Shown in pieces: positions 1-26,569 of a DNA stretch of 26,569 bases. Where the stretch lies: contig DATKBI010000089.1 in NCBI GenBank assembly GCA_035514115.1, positions 1 to 26,569 on the forward strand, in the 5' to 3' direction. The number at the start of each line of letters is the position of its first letter. The stretch's first letter is position 1. Below the pieces are notes generated by a model. That model did not search any database, was not told where the DNA came from, and worked only from the letters and a program-made list of their open reading frames with translations. This DNA comes from Planctomycetaceae bacterium. Its GTDB lineage: Bacteria; Planctomycetota; Planctomycetia; Planctomycetales; Planctomycetaceae. Position numbers and translations under genes: made by a program.

Positions 1-765
1 TTCCTGAAGCACTCCGTCGCGCCTGAAGGCATCTCGGCGGGAGTCGAAAACGTGGACTGCTTCGAGCTGGATTCGCCCGAAAAACCGCTCGCGAAACCGC
101 CGGAAGTAAGGACCCGACGTGAAGCTTCGCGGAGTGATAAAAACCAGTTCGCCGCCCGGCGCGAGGAGCGAGGCCGAAACGGCCATGAACAGCGCGTAGA
201 TGTTTGGCTGACCATGCACGACATGATCGGCCGCCCTGGCACGCGGATCCGACTTCGGGAGTTTGAAATACGGCGGGTTTCCGATGACAACATCGTACTC
301 GGCCCGCTCCTGCCCGTTGCCGAAGAGCGACTCGCTTCGGCGAAGCTGTGGCGCATGCTCGAGGATGAAGTCCTCCGAGAGTGCGCGATGCTTCACGGCG
401 AGCCCGCGTCGCCGCAGTTGCGTCTCCAGGTGGCCCAACACCTGCTTGAGGATCGGAAGCAGTCTGGGATCACACTCGTACGCGTCGATCACGATGCGCC
501 GCGGCGGCGGAGTGCGTCGCGAGAGCCCTTCCGCCACGGCACATGCCAGCACACCAGTTCCAGCCCCGGGATCGAGAATCCGAACCTCCTCCGCGTCGCA
601 GTCCACGAGCGAAGCCATGAACTCGGCAACTGCGACGGGCGTCAGGAACTGGCCGTACCGCTTTTTGTGAGTGGCCGAGGTTCCCAGCGCGTACGCTCGC
701 CCTGCGCGGTCCGCGAAGACCGTGGGACGCTCGTCGGGAATGGGTCTGAATGAGTCGGAGAGCAT
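1..765 (-). CDS. N6-adenine DNA methyltransferase of the Eco57I/TaqI gamma class, N-terminal part only. The gene continues past the window's 5' edge, so the C-terminus lies outside.
   Basis: I translated the minus strand by hand. It starts with ATG (complement of 763-765) after an in-frame TGA. It carries the SAM-binding motif I ILDPGAGTGVLACAVAEGL and the catalytic motif IV VVIGNPPYFKL in the gamma-class order. The frame stays open to position 1. The plus-strand ORF 52-753 is its antisense shadow. Confidence 0.8.
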   Translation of the reverse strand, partial: MLSDSFRPIPDERPTVFADRAGRAYALGTSATHKKRYGQFLTPVAVAEFMASLVDCDAEEVRILDPGAGTGVLACAVAEGLSRRTPPPRRIVIDAYECDPRLLPILKQVLGHLETQLRRRGLAVKHRALSEDFILEHAPQLRRSESLFGNGQERAEYDVVIGNPPYFKLPKSDPRARAADHVVHGQPNIYALFMAVSASLLAPGGELVFITPRSFTSGPYFRRFRERFFGRIQLEAVHVFDSRRDAFRRDGVLQE

Positions 766-1049
766 CGGCGAGTGCACGTCGGCAGGTTTGCGCGCCACAT
801 ACGGTTTTCAACGCGGGCTTATTCTGATGTATACGTCTTTGCTTGACAAGCGACCGCGCGTGAATCCACGCAGCCGGCCGGATGGCCGCGGCCGACTGGC
901 GGGGAGTTGAGTGGTCCGGCGACGATTCCTGGCTGTCATCGTGTTCGTAATGGCCGGGGGCCCTGCCGGTGTCTTGTCGCACGACGGGGCTTACCGTACA
1001 TTTTGGAACGCCCCACACACGACCGACCACCCAGGACCGACCACTCACC

Positions 1050-4382: not shown

Positions 4383-5714
4383 TCAATCGTTCCGCAGCTT
4401 CAGGTTCATCTCACCCAGCCGTGTGCGGATTTCGTTGAGCGAGGTCACGCCGAAGTTTCGAGTGCCCAACAGCTCGTCGGGGGTCTTCTGGACCAGCTCG
4501 CCGACCGTCGTGAGGCCCAGCCGGGTCATGCACTTCCGCGCCCGGACCGAGAGGTTCAGATCGTTGACCGACCTGGTCAACACGGCCTGCTCCTGCGGCG
4601 AGAGGTCGCGCTCGAAGTACGCCGGCAGCGGCCGCGGTTTTCCCAGGTTCTGACCGATCTGCAAGTCGTGCTCGGCCATCAGGTCGCGGACTTCCTTGAG
4701 CGACGTCTCGCCGAAGTTCTTGCCGTTGAGCAATTCCTGCTCGCCGATCCGCGTCAGGTCGCCGAGCGTGTGGATGTTCATTCCCTGCAGGCAGTTGCGG
4801 CTGCGGACCGTCAGCTCGAAATCAGTGATCGGGCGGCTGAGCAGTTGCTCGAGCCGCGCCTGCCGGCGGGCTGACTCGTCGTCGTAGTACATGTCGCCGG
4901 CCGCCTCGATGTCCCGCAGGTACAGCCGCGCCCGGGCGTGCGTCGGGTCGTGCTCGAGGATCTTGCGGAAACAGTAGGCGGACGCCGCGTAGTTCTCCTG
5001 GTCTTCGTAGAGCAGCCCCAGGTTGAGCAGCGACCCCAGATACAACGGCGGGCGGGCCAGCGACCTCTCGTACAGCCGGATCGCAATCTCGTCGTTGCCC
5101 CGCAGCGCGTTCTCGGCGGCCAGCCGGAACAGCGCGCGCGAGTGGCGGGGATCCATGTCGACGGCCCGCTCGAAATACTCGATGGCACCGAACGCATCGC
5201 CCCGGTCGGCCAGGATGCAGCCCATCTGGTACGAATACTCGGCCCGGCTGGCGGCCTGGCGCGAGACGCTTCGCAGCACCTGCTCGGCCTCGTCGATTCG
5301 GCCCTGCGCCCGGATGGCGCCCGCGCGGCGAAGGGCGCACTCGACCGGATCGTAGCCGTACCCGGCCGCGTCGGCGAACTGCCCCTCGGCCTCGTCGTGG
5401 CGCTCCAGGGCCGTCAGCACCAGCCCGTGGTAGAAACACGCCGGACCGTTCTCGTTGGTGACCCACGACAGGTACTCGTCGGCCCGCCGGTGCTGGCCCA
5501 GCAGGTAGCAGGCGATGCCCGCGCGGGTCAGCAACTCCGGCGACGGCCGGTCGGTCGAGGCGATTTCGTCTTCGAGAGCCCGCAACTCCTGCCGGGCCTC
5601 GGAAAGCTGGGGACCGGAGAGAAGCCGGGTCAGCCGCTGGACGTCGCCCGCGGCGAGGGCGGGGTCTTCCCTCAGCAGTTCCCGCACGTTCGACGGTTCG
5701 GTCGCGGTGGCCAT
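4383..5714 (-). CDS. TPR-repeat protein with two C-terminal RNA polymerase alpha-subunit CTD-like helix-hairpin-helix domains
   Basis: The N-terminal half has TPR-like repeats. The C-terminus holds two copies of an alpha-CTD signature: ITDFELTVRSRNCLQGMNIHTLGDLTRIGEQELLNGKNFGETSLKEV and NDLNLSVRARKCMTRLGLTTVGELVQKTPDELLGTRNFGVTSLNEI. Compare E. coli RpoA DLELTVRSANCLK...NLGKKSLTEI. I trimmed the start to the ATG at 5714 (MATATEPSNV), which has an AGGAG site 7 nt upstream. The ORF-track version 4383-6149 has an implausible Arg/Gly-rich extension. Confidence 0.8.
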   Translation of the reverse strand: MATATEPSNVRELLREDPALAAGDVQRLTRLLSGPQLSEARQELRALEDEIASTDRPSPELLTRAGIACYLLGQHRRADEYLSWVTNENGPACFYHGLVLTALERHDEAEGQFADAAGYGYDPVECALRRAGAIRAQGRIDEAEQVLRSVSRQAASRAEYSYQMGCILADRGDAFGAIEYFERAVDMDPRHSRALFRLAAENALRGNDEIAIRLYERSLARPPLYLGSLLNLGLLYEDQENYAASAYCFRKILEHDPTHARARLYLRDIEAAGDMYYDDESARRQARLEQLLSRPITDFELTVRSRNCLQGMNIHTLGDLTRIGEQELLNGKNFGETSLKEVRDLMAEHDLQIGQNLGKPRPLPAYFERDLSPQEQAVLTRSVNDLNLSVRARKCMTRLGLTTVGELVQKTPDELLGTRNFGVTSLNEIRTRLGEMNLKLRND

Positions 5715-5763
5715 GCGCGCTCCTGGAAGAATGGAACCGGGCCTGGGGAGACAGGGGGCTTGA

Positions 5764-5791
5764 AGTATAGTCAGTCGGCCGGCTTCTGCAA
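5764..5791 (-). promoter_or_regulatory. sigma70-like promoter, TTGCAG-16-TATACT on the minus strand, upstream of the TPR/alpha-CTD gene
   Basis: Reverse-complementing 5764-5791 gives TTGCAG, a 16-nt spacer and TATACT. It lies about 50 nt upstream of the ATG at 5714. Confidence 0.3.
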
Positions 5792-5797
5792 ACGATC

Positions 5798-7081
5798 CTA
5801 CTGCCCCAGCAGGTTGGCCAGCGGCCGCAACGACCGGAAGTGCTCGCAGATGATCTTCGCAATCCCCAGCACGGGCACGGCAATCAGCACGCCGCCAATG
5901 CCCCACATCCACCCCCACACGACCAGCGACAGAAACACCAGGACCGGGCTCAGGCTCATCGAACGCCCGAGCAGCATCGGAGTAATCAGATTGCCCTCGA
6001 TCGAGTTGATGACGAAATACGACAGCGGCGCCAGCGCCGCGTACGCCACCGAGTCGAACTGAATCAGGGCGGCGACGCCCACGGCGATGGCCCCCACCAG
6101 CGCGCCCAGGTAGGGGACAAAGTTGAGCGCCGCCGCCATCACGCCCCACAACAGCGGGTTGGGCAGCCCGAGCAGCCCCATCACCGAGCCGATCACGATC
6201 CCCAGACAGGCGTTGATGACTGTGATCGTGCCCAGGTATCGCGAAATGCCCTGCTCGATGTTCCGCACCAGTTCGACGATGCCACGCTTGTCGCGGAACG
6301 TGGGCCGGAGTTGGAGGATCTTGTTGAGGAAGGAATCCCCCAAAGCCAGCAGCAGGTACAACAGGACCACGACGATCACCACCCCCGCCGAGACCTCTCC
6401 CGTCGAAGTCAGCACGGTCTGCGTCAGGCTCGGTTGCCTGAACTCCACGACCTGGACCTCAGGCTCAGGATCGGCCTCGACCTCGGGCGACGTGGCTGAG
6501 CCGCCGGCTCCGGCCGCGGGCGCCGGGGCGGCGATTTGCTGGACTTGCTTCGAGGCCCGCTCGATGTTGCGGATCCGCTGGAACACGTACCAGAACTTGA
6601 CTTCGACCTGTCTGAGGTTGTCCGGGATCTCTTCGAACCAAGTCGTGGCCGGGCTGGCCAGCACGTAGATCCCCGTGCCGGCCGTCACCAGCAGGCCAGA
6701 CACAACCACCGCGGCCCCGGCCAGCGCCGGCACGCGCCGCCGCTGCATCCACCGCACCATCGGCCGAAACAGGAAATACAGGATGCAGGACAGAATGATC
6801 GGAAACAGCAGCGATCGGCCGAGGTAGACAGTGTAGATGACCGCCAGCGTCGCCAGAATCGTGAGCGCGACGGGGCGATGCCGGGGACCGTAGACCGCCG
6901 GCCGCCGCTTCGGCCACGGCTCAAAATCCGGAGGGCTCGGCGCGTCCCGTCCGTTCCCCGCCTCTGCCGGCAATGCGACGGCCGGCGCGCTCGGCGGCGG
7001 CGCCGGCGGAGCCGCTCCGCTGCCACTGTCACCGCTCGCTGGCTCGGAGCGTCGAACTGAAGGCTGCGTACGAGCGGGCAT
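5798..7081 (-). CDS. AI-2E family transporter (PerM/YhhT/TqsA-like permease)
   Basis: It is a multi-TM protein with the pattern LNFVPYLGALVGAIAVGVAALIQF...SPVLVFLSLVVWGWMWGIGGVLIAVPV characteristic of the AI-2E/UPF0118 family. A Pro/Ala-rich N-terminal extension precedes the first TM. Confidence 0.85.
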   Translation of the reverse strand: MPARTQPSVRRSEPASGDSGSGAAPPAPPPSAPAVALPAEAGNGRDAPSPPDFEPWPKRRPAVYGPRHRPVALTILATLAVIYTVYLGRSLLFPIILSCILYFLFRPMVRWMQRRRVPALAGAAVVVSGLLVTAGTGIYVLASPATTWFEEIPDNLRQVEVKFWYVFQRIRNIERASKQVQQIAAPAPAAGAGGSATSPEVEADPEPEVQVVEFRQPSLTQTVLTSTGEVSAGVVIVVVLLYLLLALGDSFLNKILQLRPTFRDKRGIVELVRNIEQGISRYLGTITVINACLGIVIGSVMGLLGLPNPLLWGVMAAALNFVPYLGALVGAIAVGVAALIQFDSVAYAALAPLSYFVINSIEGNLITPMLLGRSMSLSPVLVFLSLVVWGWMWGIGGVLIAVPVLGIAKIICEHFRSLRPLANLLGQ

Positions 7082-7276: not shown

Positions 7277-7419
7277 TCGACTGGTCTCCTCGGAAAAGCG
7301 GCGGTCGTGCCGCGGACAGGCTCAGGAGCGGGGACTGGCCTCCGTGCCACTCCATGTTGCGTCTCCACCGGTCCGCCCGGCAGAAGGCCAGTCCCCGCCC
7401 CTGGCGAAGGTCGCTGAAA

Positions 7420-7869
7420 TTACACGCGCTCCCGTGTGCGGCGGCTGCCGCTGCGGAGCACACTCTTGATCCACGTCAGGTTCTGTGAAAACTCGTCCCG
7501 TGAGCGCTCGAAGACGGCAAACGTCGTGCGGATTGTCCGCCAGGCGAACCACCCCAGCACGCCGCTGACCGCAACCCCGATCGCCGCGGCGATCAGCAGC
7601 GACGCCCACAGGGGCAGTCCCGTCAAGGCGATGAGCCAGGCCAGACCCAGCAACAGGACGGGAAAGCTGGACAGCAGGAGGACCACCCCGACGACGCCCA
7701 GCACGAGCGGCCGCAGAGCCCTGTTCCGCGCTTCGCGCAGGTCCACGAGCAACAGCCGGCCCTGCAATTCGCCCAGAGTCAGAACGTCGTGCGCGAAGTC
7801 CCCCACGTTCAGCCGCAGCGCCGTGCCGGCCTTTTGTCCGCGCCCGTTTACCGTCGCTTGATCAGCCAT
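7420..7869 (-). CDS. phage-holin-family / YqjE-like (DUF1469) inner-membrane protein
   Basis: It has two hydrophobic helices (VLGVVGVVLLLSSFPVLLLGLAWLIALTG and LIAAAIGVAVSGVLGWFAW). It follows a DUF883 gene in the same order as E. coli yqjD-yqjE. A GGGAG ribosome-binding site is present. Confidence 0.65.
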   Translation of the reverse strand: MADQATVNGRGQKAGTALRLNVGDFAHDVLTLGELQGRLLLVDLREARNRALRPLVLGVVGVVLLLSSFPVLLLGLAWLIALTGLPLWASLLIAAAIGVAVSGVLGWFAWRTIRTTFAVFERSRDEFSQNLTWIKSVLRSGSRRTRERV

Positions 7870-9746: not shown

Positions 9747-9807
9747 CCCCGCCACAGCGGACACACTGCCCGCCGTTCAGAAAAACTGACATCCCAGGGA
9801 GACACCG

Positions 9808-9963
9808 ATGCTCGAAATCCTGCTGCTGGTGGTACTGGTGCTGTTGCTGCTCGGCGCCCTTCCGACGTGGGGCTACAGTCGAAGCTGGGGGTACGGACCC
9901 AGCGGACTTCTAGGCCTGATTCTGGTCGTGGTCCTCGTTCTGGTGCTGATCCGCGCGATCTGA
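9808..9963 (+). CDS. DUF3309 family small membrane protein
   Basis: My own translation is MLEILLLVVLVLLLLGALPTWGYSRSWGYGPSGLLGLILVVVLVLVLIRAI, which matches the DUF3309 pattern GALP.WpySR.WGYgPsGglG. A GGGAGA ribosome-binding site is present. Confidence 0.7.
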   Translation: MLEILLLVVLVLLLLGALPTWGYSRSWGYGPSGLLGLILVVVLVLVLIRAI

Positions 9964-10088
9964 TCCCGGCCGCGAGCCGAAACCATAGGCAATTCGCGGC
10001 GGGGAGAGTCGGAAGATCCCTGACGTCGGTTTGCCCCCCTGACCGGAGGCACGGCGATCGGGCGGGACGTCGCAGGGGAGCGCTGGCA

Positions 10089-10592
10089 ATGGACTACTAC
10101 ATCCTCGCGCGGAAAGGTGGATTGGCCTGTGAGACGGTCACGTTCCTGGCCGGCCAGGGATTCGACGAGCGGACGGCCGCCGTCTTCACGTCACGCGATC
10201 GGGCGCAGCGGTTTGCCGCAGGCTGGTCGGAGACCGACGAGGTGTGCCGGCTCAACGAGATCGATCTGGCCGGCTGGCTGATCGACCTTTACCGTCGCGG
10301 CGTGCAGCGGGTTGCGGTCGATCCCGAGCGAGACCCCGCCCGGTCCGGTTCGCGGCCGACGCACTCGCTGTGTTTGCTGCTGGCCGATCTCGCCGGCAGC
10401 CTGAATGACCGGCTCCGGGGCGCGACGGCCGCGGCCCCGCGGGGGCCGGACCGGATCGTGCTTTACCGTTGCGCCCAGTGCGGAACCGTTCGGCGGCAAT
10501 TGGCCCACCAGCGTTCGCCGGTCTGCTGCGGCGCCGAAATGCAGAGATCCCCGAGGCTCGTCAGGACTCACGGTGAAGGGAAACGCGGTTGA
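10089..10592 (+). CDS. hypothetical protein with a C-terminal Cys-rich, zinc-ribbon-like motif
   Basis: It starts at MDYYILARKGG after a GGGGAG site. The C-terminal motif is CAQCG...CCGAEM. The upstream part of the track ORF 9609-10592 is low-complexity and overlaps the DUF3309 gene. Confidence 0.5.
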   Translation: MDYYILARKGGLACETVTFLAGQGFDERTAAVFTSRDRAQRFAAGWSETDEVCRLNEIDLAGWLIDLYRRGVQRVAVDPERDPARSGSRPTHSLCLLLADLAGSLNDRLRGATAAAPRGPDRIVLYRCAQCGTVRRQLAHQRSPVCCGAEMQRSPRLVRTHGEGKRG

Positions 10593-10623
10593 CCTCTCGG
10601 GGGGCATGACGAAAAGATACGAA

Positions 10624-10649
10624 TAAGCGCAGGTCATAAGCGCAGGTCA
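10624..10649. repeat. tandem direct repeat 2 x TAAGCGCAGGTCA in the histidine kinase upstream region
   Basis: Two exact 13-nt units sit head to tail. Each contains an AGGTCA hexamer, 13 nt centre to centre. Confidence 0.6.
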
Positions 10650-10718
10650 CCGGCTGGGCACCGCAGCCGCCCGGTTCATGGCCACCCCATCCGCCGCTGC
10701 GCGGGCACGTGCCGCGAT

Positions 10719-13538
10719 ATGAGAGCATTTCCGCCAGCCCTCCCCGGATTCACGCTCGCCGATGATGCGGAGTGTGTCCTCGACTCGGTCCGGGATGCGC
10801 TGCTCGTGCTCGACCGCGAGCTGCGGATCGTCTGGGCCAACCGCTCCTTCTACCGCACGTTTCCGACCACGCCCGAACAGACGCTCGGGCAGTACCTGTA
10901 CGAATTCCGCGACGGCGAATGGAACATTCCCCGGCTGCGGACGCTGCTGGAGAACGTGCTTCCTCGCGACGCGGAGTTCGAGGACTTCGAAGTCGACCAG
11001 AACTTCCGCGACGTCGGCAGCCGCACGATGCTCTTGAACGCCCGCTGCCTGCGAGCCGCGGCCGCCGCCTGCCCCGCCGGCCCGGCGCCCGACTGCCAGT
11101 TCGTGCTGCTGGTCATCAACGACATCAGCGAGCGCCGTCGCAGCGAGGTGCAGAAGGCCCGGCTGGCGGCGCTCGTGGAGAGTTCGCCCGACGCGATCAT
11201 CATCCAGACGCTGGCCGGCACGATCACCGACTGGAATTCCGGCGCCGAGCGGGCCTACGGCTACACGGCCAACGAGGCGGTCGGGCAGCACATCTCGCTG
11301 ATCATGCCCGACGGACGCGAGGCCGAGTGCGCCGACATCCGCGCGCGGCTCGCCCAGGGCGAGCGGCTGGAGCAGTTCGAGACCGTCCGCGTCCGCAAGG
11401 ACGGCCGCCACGTGCACGCCTCGCTGACGATCTCGCCCATCCGCAATTCGCTGGCCGAGATCACGCGGATTGCCACGATTGAACGGGACGTCACCCGCCG
11501 CATCCAGATCGAAGACGAGCTCCGCGTCGCCATGGAGCGCGCCGAAGCCGGGAGCCGCGCGCAGGCCGAGTTCCTGACCAACGTCAGCCACGAGCTCCGC
11601 ACGCCGATGAACGCCATCATCGGGATGACCGACCTGGCCCTCGACGAGGATCTGTCCGCCGAAGTCCGCGACTATCTGGAAACGGCCCGCGGCTCGGCCG
11701 AGGTGCTCCTGGAGCTGCTCAACGAGGTGCTCGACTTTTCCAAGCTCGAGTCGGGCGAGTTCGAGCTGGATGCCGAGCTGTTCAGCCTCAGCGAGCTGCT
11801 CGAAGCCACCCTCAAGGCCCTGGCCCTCAAGGCCTACGAGAAGGGCCTGGAGCTGGCCTGCGACCTGGCCCCGGGCATTCCCGACCGGCTGATCGGCGAC
11901 CCCTTGCGGCTGCGGCAGATCGTGACCAACCTGGCCGGCAACGCGATCAAGTTCACGCACCAGGGCGAGATTCTCATCAGCGTCGAGCCGATGGCCCTGC
12001 TCGAGGAGGAGATTCGCCTCAAGTTCTCCGTCCGCGACAGCGGGATCGGCATTCCCAAGGAGGACCAGCAGCGCGTGTTCCAGCCGTTCACGCAGGTCGA
12101 CTCCTCGATCACGCGGAACTACTCCGGGACCGGACTGGGACTGGCGATCTCGACGCAGCTCATCAACCGCATGGGCGGGCGGATCTGGCTCGACAGCGAA
12201 GTCGGCCAGGGCAGCACGTTCCACTTCACGGCCCAGTTCGGGTTGACCGCCGACGCCCCGCAGTCCGACGCGGCGCTCGCCGCGGAGCACGTCGAGGACC
12301 TCCGCGGGCTGCCGGTCCTGGTCGTGGACGACAACGAGACCAGCCGCCGCATCGTCGAACGCTGCCTGAGCAACTGGTCGATGGAGCCGGTCGCCGTCGC
12401 CGATGGCCGGACCGCGCTGGAAGCCATGCGCGACGCGGCCCGCAGCGGCCGCCGCTTTCCGCTGGTCATTCTCGACGCCTTGATGCCCGAGATGGACGGC
12501 TTTATGCTCGCCGACCAGATCCGCCAGGATCCGGCGCTCGCCGAAGCCACGATCCTCATGCTCTCCTCGGCCGATCGCCAGGCCTTCCGCGAGCGCTGCC
12601 GGGACCTGCCGATCCGGGCCTTTCTCGAAAAACCCGTCACGCAGTCGGACCTGCTCGACTCGATCGTGACCGCGCTGGGGGGGGCCCTGCCAGAGGAGCC
12701 GCGGCGCGAGAGCGACCGCGACGAGTTTCCGCGCGGGGAGCCGCTGTCACTGCTGGTCGTCGAAGACACGCCCGCCAACCAGAAGGTCGTCGTGCGGATG
12801 CTCGAGCGCCGCGGCCATGCCGTGCAGGTCGCCCACAACGGACGCGAGGCGATCGACCTGCTCTCGCAGTGCGAGTTCGACCTGGTGCTGATGGACGTCC
12901 AGATGCCCATCATGGACGGCTTCCAGGCGACGGCGGCCATCCGCGCGATGCGCGACGAGCAGTTCCGAAACGTCCCGATCGTTGCCATGACCGCCCACGC
13001 CATGAAGGGCGACCGCGAACGCTGCCTGGCCGCCGGCATGGACGCCTACATCGCCAAGCCGATCAACGCCCGGCGGCTGATCCGGATCGTCGAACGGCTC
13101 GCCGCCGGCAGCCGCTTCACTCTGGCCGCGGCCGGCGATTCGATGACCTGGGATTCCGAGACGCCGCTCCCTCTGAACTCTCGCCCGCCCGGCGAGGCCC
13201 CGCCCATCGACGTGGCGAAGGCCCTGAAGCGGCTCGATGGCGACCGGAATCTGCTGACGGACATGGCCGGGTTCTTCAACGAAGATGCCCCGGAGCTGCT
13301 GCGGAAGATCGAACTCTCTCTGGAGCGGGGCGACGCGCAGTGCGTGCAGCGCTCGGCCCACAGCCTCAAGGGCCTCGCCGCCAACTTCAACGCCGACCGG
13401 GCCGTCGCCGCCGCCTTCGACCTCGAACAGCTCGGCGAATCCGGCGACCTGTCGCACGCCGTCGTGATGTACCGCCGTCTGCGCCGCGAGGTGCAGCGCG
13501 TGATCGGCGCGCTGGAGCAGCTCGTCGCGCAGCCCTGA
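10719..13538 (+). CDS. PAS-domain hybrid sensor histidine kinase with two receiver domains and a C-terminal Hpt domain
   Basis: It has two PAS/PAC regions. HisKA is FLTNVSHELRTPMNAIIGMTDL. HATPase_c shows LRQIVTNLAGNAIKFT, DSGIGI and GTGLGLAIS. REC1 is LVVDDNETSRR...ILDALMPEMDG. REC2 is LLVVEDTPANQ...DLVLMDVQMPIMDG...AKPI. Hpt is HSLKGLAANFNA. Confidence 0.9.
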   Translation: MRAFPPALPGFTLADDAECVLDSVRDALLVLDRELRIVWANRSFYRTFPTTPEQTLGQYLYEFRDGEWNIPRLRTLLENVLPRDAEFEDFEVDQNFRDVGSRTMLLNARCLRAAAAACPAGPAPDCQFVLLVINDISERRRSEVQKARLAALVESSPDAIIIQTLAGTITDWNSGAERAYGYTANEAVGQHISLIMPDGREAECADIRARLAQGERLEQFETVRVRKDGRHVHASLTISPIRNSLAEITRIATIERDVTRRIQIEDELRVAMERAEAGSRAQAEFLTNVSHELRTPMNAIIGMTDLALDEDLSAEVRDYLETARGSAEVLLELLNEVLDFSKLESGEFELDAELFSLSELLEATLKALALKAYEKGLELACDLAPGIPDRLIGDPLRLRQIVTNLAGNAIKFTHQGEILISVEPMALLEEEIRLKFSVRDSGIGIPKEDQQRVFQPFTQVDSSITRNYSGTGLGLAISTQLINRMGGRIWLDSEVGQGSTFHFTAQFGLTADAPQSDAALAAEHVEDLRGLPVLVVDDNETSRRIVERCLSNWSMEPVAVADGRTALEAMRDAARSGRRFPLVILDALMPEMDGFMLADQIRQDPALAEATILMLSSADRQAFRERCRDLPIRAFLEKPVTQSDLLDSIVTALGGALPEEPRRESDRDEFPRGEPLSLLVVEDTPANQKVVVRMLERRGHAVQVAHNGREAIDLLSQCEFDLVLMDVQMPIMDGFQATAAIRAMRDEQFRNVPIVAMTAHAMKGDRERCLAAGMDAYIAKPINARRLIRIVERLAAGSRFTLAAAGDSMTWDSETPLPLNSRPPGEAPPIDVAKALKRLDGDRNLLTDMAGFFNEDAPELLRKIELSLERGDAQCVQRSAHSLKGLAANFNADRAVAAAFDLEQLGESGDLSHAVVMYRRLRREVQRVIGALEQLVAQP

Positions 13539-19044: not shown

Positions 19045-21201
19045 ATGAGATCTCCGATGCACCGCGCGATCCTCGCTCTGCTGGTCCTGAACGCGGCCGC
19101 GTTCTCGTGTCCCGGCACGCCGCCGGACACGAAACGCCGCCCGGTCGCCGACGTCTACCATGGCGTCCGCGTCGTCGACGACTACCGCTGGCTCGAAGAC
19201 GGCAGCGATCCCGCGGTCAAGGCCTGGAGCGACGCCCAGAATGCCCGCGCCCGCGCGTTCCTCGACGGCCGGCCCCGCATCGAGGCCGTCCGCGCGCGCG
19301 TCGCCGGGATCATGTCGGCCCCCGCCGTGCACTACGGCAGCCTGGCGTACCGCGGCGGAATGCTGTTCGCAATCAAGCACGCGCCGCCGAAGCAGCAGCC
19401 ATTCCTCGTCATCGTCGATCCGCGCGACGAAACCGCACCCGACCGCGTGCTGCTCGACCCGGCCGTGCTCGATCCCCAAGGCGGCACGGCGATCGACTGG
19501 TTCGTCCCCTCGCACGACGGGCGCCATGTCGCCGTCTCACTGTCGCACGGCGGCACCGAAGCCGGCGACGTCCACATCTACGAGACGGCCAGCGGCCGGG
19601 AGGTGTTCGAGGTCATTCCGCGGGTGAACGGCGGCACGGCCGGCGGCGACCTCGCCTGGCTCCCCGACGGCTCGGGCTTCTTCTACACGCGCTATCCTCG
19701 CGGCGATGAGCGGCCGCCGGCCGACCGCGACTTCTACCAGCAGCTCTACTTTCACAGGCTGGGCACCCCGACGGACGAGGACCGCTACGAACTGGGCCGC
19801 GATTTCCCCCGCATCGCCGAGATTCAGCTCGAACTCGACGAGGACTCCGGCCGGCTGCTGGCGACCGTGCAGAACGGCGACGGCGGCGAGTTCGCCCACT
19901 ACCTGCGCGCGCCCGCGGGCGGATGGCGGCAGTTCAGCGAGTTCGCCGACAAAACGGTCCTGGCCACCTTCGGTCCCGCGGGGCACCTGTTCGTCGTCTC
20001 GCGGCAGGACGCCCCACGCGGCCGGATCCTGCGGGTGCCGATCGACACGCTGGACGTGGCCCGCGCCCGGACGATCGTGCCCGAGGGCGACGACGCGATC
20101 ATCGCGGACTTCTGGGGTCCCCCGAGCGTGCTGGCAACCGACAGCCGCCTGTACGTCCTGTATCAGCTCGGCGGCCCGTCCGAAGTCCGTGTCTTCGACC
20201 ACGAAGGACGGCCGCAGCCCGGGCCGCGCCAGCCCGAGGTCTCGTCGGCCGGCAGCCTGACGCGGCTCACGAGTGACGAGATCCTGTTCGAGGCCGAGTC
20301 GTACCTCGACCCGCCGGCGTTCTTCCGGTTTGATCCCGCCAGCGGAACAACCCGGAAAACCGCCCTGGCCACCGATTCGCCGGTCCGCTTCGACGACGCC
20401 GAGGTCGTCCGCGAGTTCGCAACCTCCGCGGACGGTACCCGCGTCCCGGTTAACATCATCCGGCGGCGGGGGCGGCGGACGGCCAACGGCGATGGCCCCC
20501 AGCCCTGCCTCGTCACCGGCTACGGCGGCTACGGCGTGAGCAATGAGCCGCGGTTCCGCGCCACCACCCGCATCCTGCTCGACCAGGGCATGATCTACGC
20601 CGTCGCCAACATCCGCGGCGGCGGCGAATACGGCGAAGACTGGCACCGGCAGGGGAACCTGACGAACAAGCAGAATGTGTTCGACGATTTCGCCGCCGTG
20701 CTGCGGCACCTGATCGACCGCGGCGACACGGCTCCCTCGAAGCTGGCGATCATCGGCGGCAGCAACGGCGGCCTGCTGATGGGCGCCACGCTCACGCAGC
20801 ACCCCGAGCTCGTGCGGTGCGTGGTCTCGTACGTCGGCATCTACGACATGCTGCGCGTCGAGCTCTCACCCAACGGCGAGTTCAACATCACCGAGTTCGG
20901 CACCGTCAAGGACCCCGATCACTTCCAGGCGCTAAACGCCTACTCGCCCTACCACAACGTCGCGGACGGCACGAAGTACCCCGCCGTGCTGTTCCTCACC
21001 GGCGAGAACGACCCGCGCGTCGATCCCATGCAGTCGCGGAAGATGGCCGCCCGCCTCCAGGCCGCCACGGCCTCATCCCATCCGATTCTGCTGCGGACCA
21101 GCTCCAGCACCGGTCACGGAGGCGACACGCCGCTGGCCGAGCGCATCGCGGAGACCACGGACGCGTACGTGTTCCTGTTCGACCAGCTCCGTCTCAAGTA
21201 G
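19045..21201 (+). CDS. prolyl oligopeptidase (S9A family serine peptidase), secreted
   Basis: It has a signal peptide MRSPMHRAILALLVLNAAAFSC. The N-terminal beta-propeller region shows YHGVRVVDDYRWLED. The catalytic nucleophile motif is GGSNGGLLMGA, and the peptidase_S9 C-terminus has the Asp/His residues. Confidence 0.9.
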   Translation: MRSPMHRAILALLVLNAAAFSCPGTPPDTKRRPVADVYHGVRVVDDYRWLEDGSDPAVKAWSDAQNARARAFLDGRPRIEAVRARVAGIMSAPAVHYGSLAYRGGMLFAIKHAPPKQQPFLVIVDPRDETAPDRVLLDPAVLDPQGGTAIDWFVPSHDGRHVAVSLSHGGTEAGDVHIYETASGREVFEVIPRVNGGTAGGDLAWLPDGSGFFYTRYPRGDERPPADRDFYQQLYFHRLGTPTDEDRYELGRDFPRIAEIQLELDEDSGRLLATVQNGDGGEFAHYLRAPAGGWRQFSEFADKTVLATFGPAGHLFVVSRQDAPRGRILRVPIDTLDVARARTIVPEGDDAIIADFWGPPSVLATDSRLYVLYQLGGPSEVRVFDHEGRPQPGPRQPEVSSAGSLTRLTSDEILFEAESYLDPPAFFRFDPASGTTRKTALATDSPVRFDDAEVVREFATSADGTRVPVNIIRRRGRRTANGDGPQPCLVTGYGGYGVSNEPRFRATTRILLDQGMIYAVANIRGGGEYGEDWHRQGNLTNKQNVFDDFAAVLRHLIDRGDTAPSKLAIIGGSNGGLLMGATLTQHPELVRCVVSYVGIYDMLRVELSPNGEFNITEFGTVKDPDHFQALNAYSPYHNVADGTKYPAVLFLTGENDPRVDPMQSRKMAARLQAATASSHPILLRTSSSTGHGGDTPLAERIAETTDAYVFLFDQLRLK

Positions 21202-21408
21202 CTCCGGTCCTACAGCGAACGCCTCGACGATAACCCGTCCCCCCGCAGATTCCACGCCCCACAGCCTTTTCGCCACCGCCCGCCCCTGCCAGAATAAACG
21301 GCACGACCCGCCGGATTCCCGTGATCCGCTGGCCGTCCCGTCGCGTTCTCCCGTGGCGCAGCGCATTCGCGCAGCATATTTGCCACGTGTCGCCGGAGTG
21401 AAACGTCC

Positions 21409-22080
21409 ATGCAGGAGTTCATTGACGCCTGTTTCAGGGGACCGACGCTGCCGGCGAGCATCCTGCTGATCGTCGCCTGCGTGTACTGGGTGTTCGCGCT
21501 GCTCGGGGCCCTGGACCTCGATCTGTTCGACCTCGATCTGGACGTGGACGTCGATGCGGACGCGCCCGGCCATTCGCCGGCCGACATCGGCTTCGTCGCC
21601 CTGCGGTTCCTGAACCTGGGGCGGGTGCCGCTGATGATCTGGGCGAGCGTGTTTGCCCTGGCGTTCTGGTCGGCTTCGATGCTGATTGACGCGACTCGCA
21701 CCTACGCGGGCGGCGGCGAGATCGCGCTGGCGATCGCCCGCAACCTTGGACTGGCCCTCGTGGCGGCCAAGCTGCTGACGCAGCCGCTGCGGGGCAAGTT
21801 CGACGTCCACGAGCCGAACCCCGCCGAGGACTTGATCGGACGGACGTGTGTGATTACCACCACCGAGGCGACGGACCGCTTCGGCTGGGCGCAACTCGAA
21901 ACCGGCGCCTCGCCGCTGGCCCTCAGCGTGCGGGCGACCGACGGAAACCTGTCGAAAGGCGACGTGGCCGAGATCTGCGGCTACGACGCCGAACAACGAA
22001 TCTACCTGGTGAAGGCCGCCGGAAACGTCGAAGCCCGAATGACGAACGAAGCCCGAATCCCGAATGACGAAGGGCGCTGA
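21409..22080 (+). CDS. YqiJ-family (DUF1449, NfeD-like) inner-membrane protein, the usual partner of flotillin
   Basis: A TM helix is followed by an acidic DLDLFDLDLDVDVDAD linker, a second TM pair and a C-terminal NfeD-like beta region. It lies immediately upstream of a flotillin gene, as in E. coli yqiJK. Confidence 0.7.
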   Translation: MQEFIDACFRGPTLPASILLIVACVYWVFALLGALDLDLFDLDLDVDVDADAPGHSPADIGFVALRFLNLGRVPLMIWASVFALAFWSASMLIDATRTYAGGGEIALAIARNLGLALVAAKLLTQPLRGKFDVHEPNPAEDLIGRTCVITTTEATDRFGWAQLETGASPLALSVRATDGNLSKGDVAEICGYDAEQRIYLVKAAGNVEARMTNEARIPNDEGR

Positions 22081-22177
22081 GCCGCCCGGCTCGCGCCACC
22101 CGACCCCGACCCCGACCCCGGCCGCACCTTCGGGCTTCGGACTTCGTCATTCTTTCGTCATTCGAGCTTCGTCATTC
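22037..22177. repeat. array of the 10-mer GAATGACGAA (2 forward copies) and its complement TTCGTCATTC (3 copies), flanking a (CCCGAC)3 tract
   Basis: The forward copies are at 22037-22046 and 22062-22071, inside the 3' end of the yqiJ-like gene. The reverse copies are at 22143-22152, 22154-22163 and 22168-22177. (CCCGAC)3 is at about 22099-22118. Together they form a long imperfect inverted repeat just upstream of the flotillin ribosome-binding site. Confidence 0.6.
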
Positions 22178-22206
22178 GTTATTGACGAGTGTGAAAGGAA
22201 CCTCCG

Positions 22207-24246
22207 ATGCTGCTCGCTGCTGACATCCTGGGCGTCGCCGTGCCGACGTTCGTCGCCATCATCGTGGGCGTCGTGCTCGTCCTGCTGGTGATCGCCTCCT
22301 CGTTCTCCAAGTTCTACCGCAAGGTCGGCCCCGAGGAGGCGATGGTCGTCACCGGCGTCGGCGGCCTGAAGGTCGGCACCGGCACGGGCATCTGGGTGAT
22401 CCCCGTCTTCCAGCGCTTCGAGCAGATGGACCTCTCGGTCAAGCGGATCGAGATCGCCCGCCGCGGCGAAGCCGGCCTGATCTGCAAGGACAACATCCGC
22501 GCCGACATCGAGGTCGCGTTCTTCGTCCGCGTCAACAACACCAAGGAGGATATTCTCCAGGTCGCCCAGTCGCTCGGCTGCCGCCGGGCCTCCGACCCGC
22601 AGGCCCTGAACGAGCTGTTCAACGCCAAGTTCTCCGAGGCCTTGAAGACCGTCGGCAAGCACTTCGACTTCACCGAGCTGTACAACCAGCGCGAGCAGTT
22701 CAAGGAGCAGATCCTCAAAGTCATCGGCACGGACCTCAACGGCTACAAGCTCGACGACTGCGCGATCGACTATCTCGAGCAGACGCCGATCGAGAAGCTC
22801 AACCCGATGAACATCCTCGACGCCGAGGGCATCAAGAAAATCACCGAGCTGACGTCGCGCGAGAAAGTCCAGGAAAACCATTTCACCCGCGAACGCGAGA
22901 AAACCATCAAGAAGCAGGACGTCGAGGCCGCCGAGACGATTTTCGAACTCGAAAAGCAGCGCGTCGAGGCCGAGCAGAAACAGCTTCGCGAGATCGCCGC
23001 CATCACCTCCCGCGAACAGGCCGAGGCGGCGAAGGTCCAGGAAGAAGAGCGGCTCCGCTCCGAGCGGGCGCGGATCATCACCGAAGAGGAAGTCGCCGTC
23101 GCCGAAGAGAACAAGCTGCGTCAGGTCATCGTCGCGCGCAAGAGCAAAGAGCGCACCGACGCGGTCGAATCCGAGCGCGTTGAAAAGGACCGTCTGCTCG
23201 AAGTCACCGAACGCGAGCGCGTCTTCGGCCTCGCGCAGATTGAAAAGGACAAGGCCATCGAACTCCAGCGCCGCGATATCCAGGAGGTGATTCGCGAACG
23301 CGTGATTGTCGAGCGCGCCGTGGTCGAGGAACAGGAGCGGATCAAAGACACTCACGAGTTCGCCGCCGCCGATCGGCTGAAACAGGTGACCGTCACCAGG
23401 GCCGAGATGTCGGCGCAGGAATCGCTGGTCAAGGAGGTCAAGGCCGCCGAAGCGTCGCGTCAGGCCGCCGACCTGCTGGCCCAGCAGGTCGTGATCGAGG
23501 CCGAAGCGCAGCGGTCGGCCGCCGAGAAGCAGACGATCTCCAAGAAGATGCTGGCCGAGGCGCATCAGGCGGAATCGGCCGCGCCGGGTCTGGCCGAGGC
23601 GCAGGTCCTGGCGGCGCGGGCCGACGCGGTCGAGAAGCACGGCACCGCCGAGGCCGAGGTCATGCGGCTGAAGTTCACGGCGGAGGCCACCGGCATCGAG
23701 GCCAAGGCCGAGGCGATGAAGCTGTTCGACGGCGTGGGCCGCGAGCACGAGGAGTTCAAGCTGCGGCTCAACAAGGACAAGGACATCGAGATCGCGGCCA
23801 TCGAGGCGCAGCGGAACATCGCCCGCGACCAGTCGGAGATCGTCTCGGCCGCGCTCCAGAGCGCGCGGATCGATATCGTGGGCGGCGAGACGGCGTTCTT
23901 CGACAAGATCGTGGATTCGATCAAAGGCGGGAAGGCCGTGGACCGGTTCGTGCAGAGCAGCCAGGTCCTCTCGGACGTCAAGGAGACGTTCTTCGACGGC
24001 AACGGCGACCCGGACTACTTCCGCAAGCAGCTCAAGCGGTTCGTGTCGCACTTCGGGATGAATTTCGAGGACATCAAGGACCTGTCGGTCTCGGCGCTGA
24101 TCGGCCGGATGATCCTGGAGTCGTCGAGCGAGGAGACGACCAGTGACCTCACGCGGATCCTGCGGATGGTCAAGGGCGCGGGCGTGGCCGACAAGCGCGT
24201 GGCGTCGCTGGGGCTGGGGCTGGCGGAGACGGCGGACAAGAACTGA
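22207..24246 (+). CDS. flotillin-family SPFH/band-7 protein (YqiK-like)
   Basis: The N-terminal TM is VPTFVAIIVGVVLVLLVIA. The SPFH domain shows EAMVVTGVGGLKV...SVKRIEIARRGEAGLICKDNIRADIEVAFFVRV. It has a long Glu/Arg/Ala-rich coiled-coil flotillin region. It is 679 aa. Confidence 0.9.
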   Translation: MLLAADILGVAVPTFVAIIVGVVLVLLVIASSFSKFYRKVGPEEAMVVTGVGGLKVGTGTGIWVIPVFQRFEQMDLSVKRIEIARRGEAGLICKDNIRADIEVAFFVRVNNTKEDILQVAQSLGCRRASDPQALNELFNAKFSEALKTVGKHFDFTELYNQREQFKEQILKVIGTDLNGYKLDDCAIDYLEQTPIEKLNPMNILDAEGIKKITELTSREKVQENHFTREREKTIKKQDVEAAETIFELEKQRVEAEQKQLREIAAITSREQAEAAKVQEEERLRSERARIITEEEVAVAEENKLRQVIVARKSKERTDAVESERVEKDRLLEVTERERVFGLAQIEKDKAIELQRRDIQEVIRERVIVERAVVEEQERIKDTHEFAAADRLKQVTVTRAEMSAQESLVKEVKAAEASRQAADLLAQQVVIEAEAQRSAAEKQTISKKMLAEAHQAESAAPGLAEAQVLAARADAVEKHGTAEAEVMRLKFTAEATGIEAKAEAMKLFDGVGREHEEFKLRLNKDKDIEIAAIEAQRNIARDQSEIVSAALQSARIDIVGGETAFFDKIVDSIKGGKAVDRFVQSSQVLSDVKETFFDGNGDPDYFRKQLKRFVSHFGMNFEDIKDLSVSALIGRMILESSSEETTSDLTRILRMVKGAGVADKRVASLGLGLAETADKN

Positions 24247-24259
24247 TCGTGTCGGAACA

Positions 24260-26569
24260 TGGCTCAGGCAGCAAACAGCACCGGCCCGCAGGACCAGGCC
24301 GCGCCGTCCGAGCCGGCGCTCGACAGCGGGACGTATGAGATCATCCGCAACCGCCTGCGGGGGCATGCGGCCGAGCTGCGCGAGCGGCTCGCGCAACTCA
24401 ACGCGGCCCGCAAGGATGTGTTCGGGTCGATCGATACGGCGCTGATCGCGACCGAGCGCGTCACCACGGCGCATAACTGCGTGCCGCGGGACATGCTGGC
24501 CGTCGGGAACCGGTTCCTGTTCGGCTACAACGTCCACTTCGGCCTGAAGACCGAGCGGGACCTGGCGGACGTGTTTTCGGTGTACGAGTTCCGCGAGAAC
24601 TCGTTTCATGAACTGCCGCTGGACCTGATCCGCGACGCGGCGTTCGAGAAGCACTTCCAGGACGTGTACCGGTACTACAAGGACGCCGTGTTCGCGAAGT
24701 TTTTCGCGCGCGGGCCGCACCTGTACATCGTCTTCCGCGTCGGCAAGACGCCGGCCGACATCAAGACGTTCAAATGGCTCGTCGAAGGCGACGGGCTGCG
24801 GTATCTCGACAACCGCAGCGATCACGAGGTGCGGTATCCGCCGCAGCACGAGTTCGAGTGGACGCGCACGCACCGCGACATGCACTACGCGGGGCCGCAC
24901 CCGCACGTCTCGATCGAGGACCGGCTGTTCGTCGAGACCGTGGGCGGCGACCTGACGATCAAGGTCGAGAACAACACCGACTCGGGCGAGGGCATCTACG
25001 CCGAGCCGGTGGACGACCCGGACCAGACGCTGGATGACGCCGAGATCTATTATGCGTCCGTCGGGAACATCATCCTGCTCAAGGTGCGGCCCTACCAGGA
25101 GCAGCGGTTCCGGTACTTCGTCTACAACGAAAAGATCCGGCGGGCGGTGCGGCTGGATGCGATCGAGCACGCCTGCGTGCTGCTGCCGGGAGACCACGGG
25201 CTGATCTTCTCCAACGGCTATTACCTGCAGACCGGCGAGCACAAGACGTTCGAGAGCGGCCTGACGGACATGCAGTTCTCGCGGCGGATCGCCGCGCCGA
25301 ACGGAGAGGACTACCTGTACGTCTTTTATCACCGCGCGTCGGGCGTCTCTACGCTGCTGGGTTACAACGTCATCGCGCAGCGGGTCGAAACGCCGGTCAT
25401 TTGCCACGGCTTCACGCTGTTCAAAGGCGGCGAGCTGATCCTGTTCAAGGCGCAGCCGGAGCCGCAGAGGCACCACGCGATCCAGATCTGGCAGACGCCC
25501 TACGTCGGCGAAGACTACGTCCCGCACGTCACGAGCGACAGCTATCTGTTCAAGGTCGGCAACCGCGACATCGTGCGGGCGATGGCCGAGTGCCACGAAG
25601 TGCTGGCGCTGATCGACAAGGACGACACGTACTCGGGCCTGTACGTGGACCTGGTCAAGGCGGCCGGCGACATCATCGACAGCTACTTCTGGATCGACCG
25701 GCCGGAAGCGTTCCGGATCCAGGAGCCGCTGGCGCAGATCCGGGACGCGGCGGCGGCGGCGATCAATGAGTTCGAGAAGGTCGTCCGCGTCCGCGAGAAC
25801 ACGGCGGCCGAGACGCGGCGCGTGACGGGCGAGGCGCGGAGCCTCCTGGCGGGCGCCGGACGCAAGCGGTACGAGGTGATTGGCGATTTTGTGGCGTCGC
25901 TGGCCGACCTGCGGCGGGTGCGGGGCGAGGTCATCGCGCTTAAGGACCTGCGGTACGTGGACCGCGGGCTGGTGGAGCGGGTCGAGGGCGAGGTCGCGGA
26001 GGCCTCCGAGCGGCTGGCGAAGCGGGCGGTCGAGTTTCTGCTGCGGCCGGATGCGCTCTGGCCGTATATCGAGCAGGTGCGGGCCGAGCAGGCGAAGATC
26101 GGCGGTCTTCAAAAGGTCACCGATGCCCGCCAGCTCGAAGAGGCGATCGCCGCCAGCGCCGCCGAACTGGAGATGCTCGTCGAGATTGTCTCGAACCTGG
26201 CGATCGACGACGCCACGCAGCGGACGGTGATCATCGACAGCATCTCGGCGATCTTCACGGACATCAACCAGGCGCGGGCGGCGCTCCGGCGGAAGACGAA
26301 GGAGCTGGCGTCGGTCGAAGGCGTGGCCGAGTTCGGCTCGCAGTTGAAGCTCTTGAACCAGAGCGTCGTCAACTCTCTGGACGTGTGCGACACGCCGGAG
26401 AAGTGCGAGGAGTTCCTGACGCGGGTGATGATCCAGCTCGAGGAGCTGGAGGGCCGGTTCGCCGAGTTCGACGAGTTCGTCGTGCAGCTCACCGAAAAGC
26501 GGGAGGAGGTCTACAACGCCTTCGACTCGAAGAAGCTGGCGCTGATCGAGGCGCGGAACAAGCGGGCCG
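24260..26569 (+). CDS. large conserved hypothetical protein (more than 770 aa visible, C-terminus outside the window), co-operonic with flotillin
   Basis: The ATG sits 13 nt after the flotillin stop. The frame stays open for 770 codons to the window end with coding-like high-GC third positions. The N-terminal roughly 450 aa are beta-rich (YLYVFYHRASGVSTLLGYNVIAQRVETPVICHGFTLFKGGELILFKAQPEP), followed by a helical, coiled-coil-like region. There is no Walker A motif in the visible part. It is absent from the ORF track only because no stop falls in the window. Confidence 0.7.

Follow-up and report, generated by a model that had tools for sequence, protein, structure and literature searches.

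A palindromic repeat between the yqiJ-like and flotillin genes of a Planctomycetaceae bacterium is probably one copy of a dispersed family

What is the dense array of short repeats that separates the yqiJ-like gene from the flotillin gene in a Planctomycetaceae bacterium, and does it control the flotillin gene that follows it? The window considered here is the whole contig DATKBI010000089.1 (assembly GCA_035514115.1), 26,569 nucleotides (nt) in length, in which one copy of the repeat element was examined at the junction of the two genes. An earlier note, made from the letters of the sequence, had described 10-mers lying on both sides of a hexamer tract at this junction, and had proposed that they form an RNA hairpin acting on the flotillin start, an array of binding sites for a regulator, or a phase-variable locus. 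The results of our analysis indicate that the region probably represents a copy belonging to a dispersed palindromic repeat family of Planctomycetota and Verrucomicrobiota mainly, and that this copy was inserted at the end of the yqiJ-like gene; the element was not built for the flotillin gene and is not a switch for it. This reading is based on direct observation of the anatomy of the element, its absence from orthologous junctions, and the family with its genomic habits. The family has the form 5'-(NNNCGAA)n, often TGACGAA, followed by a variable core and by (TTCGNNN)n-3'. The best reading of the copy in the window is an interspersed palindromic element resembling repetitive extragenic palindromes (REP) and miniature inverted-repeat transposable elements (MITE), which forms an intercistronic RNA hairpin. 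The element is organized as follows.

22024-22180, unstranded: the whole palindromic repeat element (about 155 nt), made of a left heptamer arm, a unique core and a right heptamer arm; no inverted repeat in the window is stronger.
22024-22073, unstranded: left arm of degenerate NNNCGAA heptamers (GCCCGAA, TGACGAA, TCCCGAA), translated as the tail of the yqiJ-like open reading frame (ORF); from Tandem Repeats Finder (TRF), inverted-repeat and array scans.
22074-22098, + strand: central GC-rich stem-loop GCGCUGAGCC-GCCC-GGCUCGCGC with a 10-bp stem, folding at -15.7 kcal/mol.
22099-22120, + strand: (CCCGAC)3.7 tract in the core; from the tandem scan.
22127-22180, unstranded: right arm of degenerate TTCGNNN heptamers (TTCGGGC, TTCGGAC, TTCGTCA, TTCGAGC); from TRF, inverted-repeat and array scans.

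The repeats reported earlier are all present. GAATGACGAA occurs twice at the end of the yqiJ-like ORF, within the left arm (22037-22046 and 22062-22071), and its complement TTCGTCATTC occurs three times upstream of the flotillin ribosome-binding site (22143-22152, 22154-22163 and 22168-22177, the copies being separated by a single T and by the tetranucleotide GAGC), while the (CCCGAC)3 microsatellite between the two groups extends to 3.7 units. Chance does not explain either the 10-mers or the hexamer tract: the exact 10-mer copies are five, matches with at most one mismatch number 6, where dinucleotide shuffles average 1.26 and none of 100 attains 6, and the CCCGAC tract is the sole perfect threefold tandem of any 5- to 9-mer in the 26.5-kb window, for which 0.005 would be expected. 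The two arms proper (22024-22073 and 22127-22176) are 50 nt long and 76% complementary, show a period of 7 by TRF, and in the left arm contain strict threefold heptamer arrays at 22026-22046 and 22051-22071. The long, bulged RNA hairpin that the earlier note envisaged is borne out by folding, since the RNA of 22020-22215 folds at -82.3 kcal/mol (z = -4.8), and the element alone at -73.4 kcal/mol as + strand RNA and -89.4 kcal/mol as a minus-strand transcript. The stop codon of yqiJ, TGA at 22078-22080, lies inside the central stem-loop, and 22024-22077 encode the element-derived residues of the YqiJ-like protein, approximately 206-223 (NVEARMTNEARIPNDEGR). The core (22072-22130) matches nothing in the other fetched loci and is private to this copy, and the CCCGAC tract is not a feature of the family. 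On the mRNA strand this tract is C-rich and G-poor, and its minus strand constitutes a G-quadruplex motif. Canonical motifs of this kind number only two in the window, at 22099-22119 (the tract itself) and at 13184-13205, both on the minus strand, from which + strand genes are transcribed as template.

Comparison with orthologous junctions points to an insertion. In the closest relative, here labelled L120, whose flotillin is 85% identical, the junction reads TGA-C-ATG, with neither spacer nor element; in a second relative (L122) the yqiJ-flotillin gap is 4 nt and the element is again absent. Approximately 75 further orthologous loci, taken from metagenomes, have estimated gaps that mostly range from about -37 to +43 nt; ten of them reach 54-106 nt, and none has a gap as large as the 126 nt of the window. 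The element is absent at 70 or more orthologous yqiJ-flotillin junctions. At the protein level, yqiJ orthologs stop 3-12 residues past a conserved Y-x-V motif, whereas the window protein runs on for 20 (KAAGNVEARMTNEARIPNDEGR), and its residues from N206 onward are an in-frame translation of the left arm. The stretch from the last alignable codon to the flotillin ATG is about 155 nt longer in the window than in L120, with boundaries set by coding alignments (a global DNA alignment was misaligned past the junction), and this extra length matches that of the palindrome. Excision of 22024-22176 (153 nt, in frame) leaves ...YLVKAAGRY-TGA followed by 21 nt with the Shine-Dalgarno (SD) sequence and the ATG, namely an ortholog-like junction; a stop codon so soon after excision has about a 1-in-7 probability by chance, and hence it is a supporting point only. 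At this locus the element lengthens yqiJ by about 18 codons and shifts the flotillin start downstream by about 150 nt. We also considered the core as a relic of an ancestral proline-rich tail of YqiJ and rejected this, since L120 ends in QPAQPPSEA, and the PTPTPTPAAPS of the window is read in another frame and lacks a conserved equivalent among other orthologs.

The family emerged from a scan of one genome per species, seeded on two copies of TTCGTCATTC within 12 nt, which returned at least 119 stretches, many of which are simple (TTCGTCA)n arrays. More than half of the matches listed show the layout seen in the window, with TGACGAA-type heptamers, a core and TTCGTCA-type heptamers, and by record title the palindromic loci among the matches listed belong overwhelmingly to Planctomycetota or Verrucomicrobiota, with a few metagenome-assembled genomes (MAGs) labelled otherwise. 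The hosts include Gemmataceae, Pirellulales, Planctomycetaceae, Tepidisphaerales and Phycisphaerae among Planctomycetota, and Prosthecobacter, Chthoniobacterales, Pedosphaera, Udaeobacter, Brevifollis and Opitutaceae among Verrucomicrobiota. At least 82 elements in the fetched loci, that of the window included, have all their R (TGACGAA) units before all their F (TTCGTCA) units; their median span is about 100 nt, their median core 39 nt and their median fold z -5. With the unit order RRFFF, the window copy is typical of the family yet rather degenerate. The order of the arms is no artefact of the search, for an unbiased test found GAATGACGAA-N10-40-TTCGTCATTC in 16 IMG/VR contigs and the reverse order in 2.

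Discrete units of the family recur within single loci. The locus L013 carries two copies 860 nt apart that share 193 nt at 92% identity and have unrelated flanks, L045 carries two copies sharing 135 nt at 90%, and some contigs have 2-3 copies per 5-12 kb. The arms of the window match arms found elsewhere over up to 40 nt at 95% (the right arm, in L116). Strict threefold NNNCGAA arrays were also looked for in 600 kb of flotillin loci that had not been chosen by the motif, where 0.2 would be expected; they occur in only three places, namely the window, a palindrome of L122, and the palindromes that follow the flotillin stop in L134 and L168 (ATCCGAA flavour). Strict threefold heptamer arrays numbered four, against 0.2 expected in 600 kb. 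Heptamer-arm palindromes are likewise present in IMG/VR contigs that are classed as viral (L214, L206, L209-L212), with 2-3 per 4-14 kb locus (three in 5 kb in L214, two in L209-L212), often a few nt upstream of the SD and ATG of a gene. Pure (TTCGTCA)n arrays of 9-17 units without an opposing arm were seen at L035:4-122, L098:5801-5898, L003:2151-2251 and L089:540-605; some of them coincide with assembly breaks at contig ends, and some come from MAGs with a Chloroflexota or Bacteroidota label. BLAST against annotated plasmids gave no match to the element, and no ORF bracketed by arrays, as a parent insertion sequence would be, stood out in the motif position lists of 8-kb loci, which were not searched systematically for one.

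The location of the family in genomes is equally regular, as judged with a simple GC3/GC1/GC2 gene caller that yields a sensible map of the window and approximate numbers. Thirty-two palindromic elements have both neighbours called, and 24 of them are flanked by tandem genes, 8 by convergent genes and none by divergent ones, against 283, 81 and 77, respectively, for the other gaps of the same loci (Fisher p = 0.003; length-weighted binomial p = 0.0004). The edge of the element is a median of 4.5 nt from the adjacent stop codon, and ORFs often extend for a few codons into the left arm. The window element fits this pattern, being placed between tandem genes with its left arm overlapping the stop region of yqiJ. 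Such a placement is the same as that known for REP-type elements, according to a REP survey (PMC3733652), and for terminators.

The genes on either side of the element, and the SD region that the hairpin had been thought to govern, are the following.

21409-22080, + strand: gene of a YqiJ_N-family (NfeD-like) membrane protein (Pfam PF21001).
22193-22201, + strand: SD region GAAAGGAAC of the flotillin gene, located outside the palindrome by sequence and folding.
22207-24246, + strand: flotillin/SPFH gene (Band_7, YqiK-like; Pfam PF01145, homologs named flotillin/YqiK), the downstream operon partner.
24259-26568, + strand: DUF3686/DUF7902 ATPase gene, third in the conserved operon, starting 12 nt after the flotillin stop.

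The order yqiJ-like gene, flotillin and DUF3686 ATPase recurs in the relatives L121 and L122. More generally, the three-gene operon of NfeD-like yqiJ, flotillin and a DUF3686/DUF7902 AAA-type ATPase of about 1800 residues (an 'ATPase involved in DNA repair' in the wording of Pfam) is kept across Planctomycetaceae relatives. Because the yqiJ-flotillin synteny continues across the repeat in all relatives, the contig junction at this point is neither chimeric nor misassembled. Transcription of the DUF3686 ATPase gene must cross the element. No transposase, regulator or known RNA lies near the element among the called genes and Rfam hits of the window, the sole Rfam hits being two tRNAs.

Other lineages, too, have palindromes at junctions of this operon, some of them related to the element. 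A long and strong palindrome at the yqiJ/flotillin junction is found among relatives in L121 only, the relative with a 5.2-Mb contig, and with unrelated sequence: it is nearly perfect, has 25-nt arms (AGCCCGAAGCGCAAGCGAGGGA...TCCCTCGTTTGCGCTTCGGGCT) and spans L121:9889-9959. This hairpin looks as if it had been acquired independently at the same spot. Directly after the flotillin stop, before the DUF3686 gene, there are palindromes of CGAA-type heptamers in ATCCGAA or ACGAAT flavours (L134:3185-3330, L168:5081-5108 and L121:12119-12187).

The alternative that survives best, and which we nevertheless regard as unlikely, is that the element is a selected RNA hairpin at gene 3' ends or between cistrons, acting as a bidirectional terminator, an attenuator or a barrier to RNase III or 3' exonucleases, and that it has been kept here for the ratio of yqiJ to flotillin. 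It stays alive because other lineages also have palindromes at the junctions of this operon. It is also consistent with the way in which the elements avoid divergent spacers, which contain promoters only, and adjoin stop codons; with the A-rich arm lying 5' and the U-rich arm 3' whichever strand is read, an arrangement seen in bidirectional terminators (the 16:2 bias reported above); with the fact that three TGACGAA units provide a TGA stop in all three frames in either direction; and with the C-rich, G-poor untranslated tract, which is rut-like. Against this account, T is not enriched past the outermost stem across the family (a fraction of 0.22 versus 0.20 in the background), no terminator-like site was found on the + strand at 21000-22600 and no promoter-like site near the element, and a strong stop would silence the two genes that follow, for flotillin and the DUF3686 ATPase. 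Since both belong to the same tight operon and need read-through, efficient termination by the element is excluded unless it also supplied a promoter. Moreover, most orthologs manage with abutting genes, and the copy present here is degenerate, its arms being 76% complementary.

An improbable origin, more so than the selected hairpin, would be local: heptamer arrays grown by replication slippage could have been made complementary through hairpin or template-switch repair around an earlier GC-rich hairpin at the gene end. The core that is unique to this locus would then be explained, as would arms that share a heptamer vocabulary in different order and with imperfect complementarity; pure (TTCGTCA)n arrays of up to 17 units do exist, and the spacers of L121 hold many unrelated short-repeat palindromes. 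Against this account weigh the identical TGACGAA/TTCGTCA heptamer in two phyla and dozens of genomes, the discrete units of 135-193 nt, cores included, that are common to sites with unrelated flanks, and the match between the extra 155 nt or so and the length of the palindrome, whose removal restores a normal junction.

A dedicated cis-regulatory RNA of the flotillin gene, be it an attenuator, a thermometer or a riboswitch that hides or exposes the ribosome-binding site, is very improbable. This was the main idea of the earlier note. In its favour are a stable and statistically unusual fold placed directly upstream of the flotillin start, and the right-arm UUCUUUC, which could pair with GAAAGGA. 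A stable stem was found when the region was folded, but the SD is not inside it. For the SD (22193-22201), the mean unpaired probability is predicted to be 0.67 when the element is present and 0.64 once it is deleted; forcing the left arm open, to imitate a translating ribosome, lowers it to 0.42, a prediction that would favour occlusion. The accessibility of the SD is thus predicted to be the same with or without the element, with no switch, and the stem of about -73 kcal/mol is calculated to be far too stable for a thermometer, that is, to melt physiologically. The idea of attenuation, or of thermo- or ligand-sensing, fares no better. The element is not a conserved leader or attenuator, because it is lacking in the closest relative and at 70 or more orthologous junctions, and the same element flanks unrelated genes. 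No Rfam family matched it either in the region at E<=10, in the whole window or in 15 other loci of the family, which gave chance hits or tRNAs only.

Hardly credible, finally, is an array of regulator sites on DNA, formed by the TTCGTCATTC repeats with their 11- and 14-nt spacing, or phase variation by slippage of (CCCGAC)n: three exact 10-mers near helical-turn spacing and a non-random hexamer tandem are there, but a flotillin-specific operator is disfavoured because the same arrays, always as palindrome arms, flank unrelated genes in many genomes of the Planctomycetes-Verrucomicrobia-Chlamydiae (PVC) group, and no promoter-like site or adjacent regulator gene is nearby. As for phase variation, the tract, which is not a family feature, is limited to 3.7 units within a hairpin core that is not translated, and a 6-nt unit could not shift the frame. 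Two further candidates were rejected. The short overlapping ORF at 22064-22291 is not a leader peptide, being merely the repeat read in another frame; nor is the region an integron attC site, since RYYYAAC/GTTRRRY cores are lacking and the genes on either side are those of a conserved operon rather than cassettes.

An inserted copy of the dispersed family is therefore the reading that we prefer, and several points weigh against it. No direct repeat that would suggest a target-site duplication is evident between 22015-22023 and 22177-22190, where the boundaries are uncertain by about one heptamer, and none of the called genes of the window encodes a transposase or a REP-associated tyrosine transposase (RAYT). 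The window holds no further copies, even with looser twofold heptamer patterns. The copy has a core of its own, and its arms do not mirror each other, so that growth by local slippage or template switching is conceivable, and the palindromes found at junctions of this operon in other lineages could signal selection for an intercistronic hairpin rather than tolerance of it. To this must be added that the census was seeded on an exact motif, that the gene caller is crude, and that all effects at the RNA level are ones that we infer.

The sequence of events can be proposed as follows. A copy of about 153-155 nt would have entered the last codons of the yqiJ-like gene, which in relatives abuts or nearly abuts flotillin, replacing the natural end of the gene by an 18-codon tail derived from the element and creating a 126-nt untranslated spacer. 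The operon transcript would then carry an imperfect stem of about 50 bp between the two cistrons, and translational coupling between yqiJ and flotillin would probably be lost. Long mRNA hairpins of this sort, such as REP in operons, Correia elements and phage intercistronic stems, provide the model for what may follow: the stem could be a plausible substrate of a double-strand-specific RNase or a barrier to 3' exonucleases, and the untranslated C-rich spacer of 126 nt might permit some Rho-dependent polarity, a partial or Rho-assisted stop being among the options for a generic effect on expression. On balance, a modest constitutive effect, with no sensing involved, or near-neutrality would seem most likely.

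The locus itself is ordinary, a repeat insertion, and the family is moderately interesting and apparently uncatalogued. As a tentative extension, for which we would claim only a possible case, NNNCGAA/TTCGNNN palindromes may represent an undescribed superfamily of Planctomycetota, Verrucomicrobiota and their phages, in which the polarity of the arms is fixed and insertion is strictly biased to the few nucleotides from a stop codon to the next gene; they would be either a non-autonomous mobile element that targets gene ends or a bidirectional terminator or intercistronic processing signal proper to these genomes, with TGACGAA stops in all frames. We found no description of the family in the literature on palindromic or MITE repeats of Planctomycetes or on terminators of Planctomycetes and Verrucomicrobia, which is no proof that none exists; the listed occurrences of the 10-mer in the literature appear to be unrelated, for example primers, and the family is covered neither in the REP survey (PMC3733652) nor in a survey of prokaryotic satellites (PMC6749651).

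For the locus, these results remove a tempting but mistaken annotation, that of a flotillin riboswitch or operator, and identify the last 18 or so predicted residues of the YqiJ-like protein as repeat-derived and outside the protein family. More broadly, elements of this type seem to pepper the gene ends of Planctomycetota and Verrucomicrobiota genomes, where they will create spurious ORFs and ORF extensions; arrays of the element break assemblies, and several contigs end in them. They may also shape operon expression in phyla where hardly any work exists on terminators or mRNA processing signals. With its defined sequence grammar and polarity rule, the family lends itself readily to a census.

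Other features of the window deserve a brief record. An inverted repeat at 7323-7403, with 19-nt arms that are 95% complementary (CAGGAGCGGGGACTGGCCT / AGGCCAGTCCCCGCCCCTG), is terminator-like, belongs to a different sequence family and lies just downstream of the stop of a holin-X-like gene (7420-7869, minus strand). The ORF at 4383-6149 (minus strand) is an unusual fusion, in which TPR repeats are joined to two RNA polymerase alpha C-terminal domains (two stretches of PF03118); its true start is probably further downstream, as the called start overlaps the gene of an AI-2E transporter (5798-7081, minus strand). The 926 nt at 9793-10718, between divergent genes for a CsbD-domain protein and a hybrid histidine kinase, contain no called gene, have the most negative fold energy per nt of all spacers (-0.47) and give no Rfam hit. 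At the left contig end, a partial gene for an Eco57I-like/N6 DNA methylase (2-798, minus strand) runs off the contig.

Among known systems, the closest likeness is with REP and the related REPIN and BIME. According to PMC3733652, these are short interspersed palindromes, often two inverted halves within a larger hairpin, which are multi-copy, extragenic, located by gene 3' ends and rare in divergent spacers, as is the family described here; a REP is a palindrome of 20-40 bp headed by a conserved unpaired GTAG (or CGTC) and associated with RAYT, and the same survey gives as proposed roles of REP mRNA stabilisation, termination and supercoiling. The element differs in having no GTAG/CTAC at either end, and thus, lacking a GTAG or CGTC head, it does not fall within the definition of REP. 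Its arms are arrays of degenerate heptamers of 20-70 nt (50 nt here) rather than one stem of 8-13 bp, its core varies from 10 to 180 nt, and its main hosts are Planctomycetota and Verrucomicrobiota. No link of the family to RAYT is known, and in the window no called gene has a transposase domain.

The MITEs known as Correia or NEMIS in Neisseria, and ERIC, are co-transcribed with genes, and in Neisseria their hairpins are substrates of RNase III and alter mRNA stability. The element resembles them in size (about 100-150 nt), inverted-repeat ends, position at or between genes, presence or absence among relatives and long hairpins in transcripts. The size and terminal inverted repeats of a MITE are found in the two 50-nt arms, 76% complementary within about 155 nt in total, and the empty orthologous site is found in L120, L122 and the other junctions examined that lack the element. 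The sequence, in contrast, is unrelated, and heptamer arrays of variable number take the place of fixed terminal repeats. With Rickettsia palindromic elements (RPE), which PMC3733652 cites as CGTC-1/-4 repeats, the family shares the capacity of palindromic repeats to land in coding sequence and be translated, the left arm giving here the last 18 or so codons of the yqiJ-like gene. RPE differ, for they insert in frame inside genes and the downstream protein is kept, whereas here the end of the gene has been replaced and a stop is carried by the element; the sequence family and the hosts are also unrelated.

Bidirectional intrinsic terminators are similar in presenting, on both strands, a GC-rich hairpin with A-rich sequence on its 5' side and T-rich sequence on its 3' side, in following stop codons and in being absent from divergent spacers. 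They differ in that no U-tract follows the stem of the element, the canonical stem is 5-14 bp and that of the element far longer, and the copy considered here sits inside an operon that needs read-through. What is distinctive of the element, with respect to all these systems, is the combination of variable-number arms of degenerate heptamers, fixed arm polarity, a variable core and a host range centred on Planctomycetota and Verrucomicrobiota.

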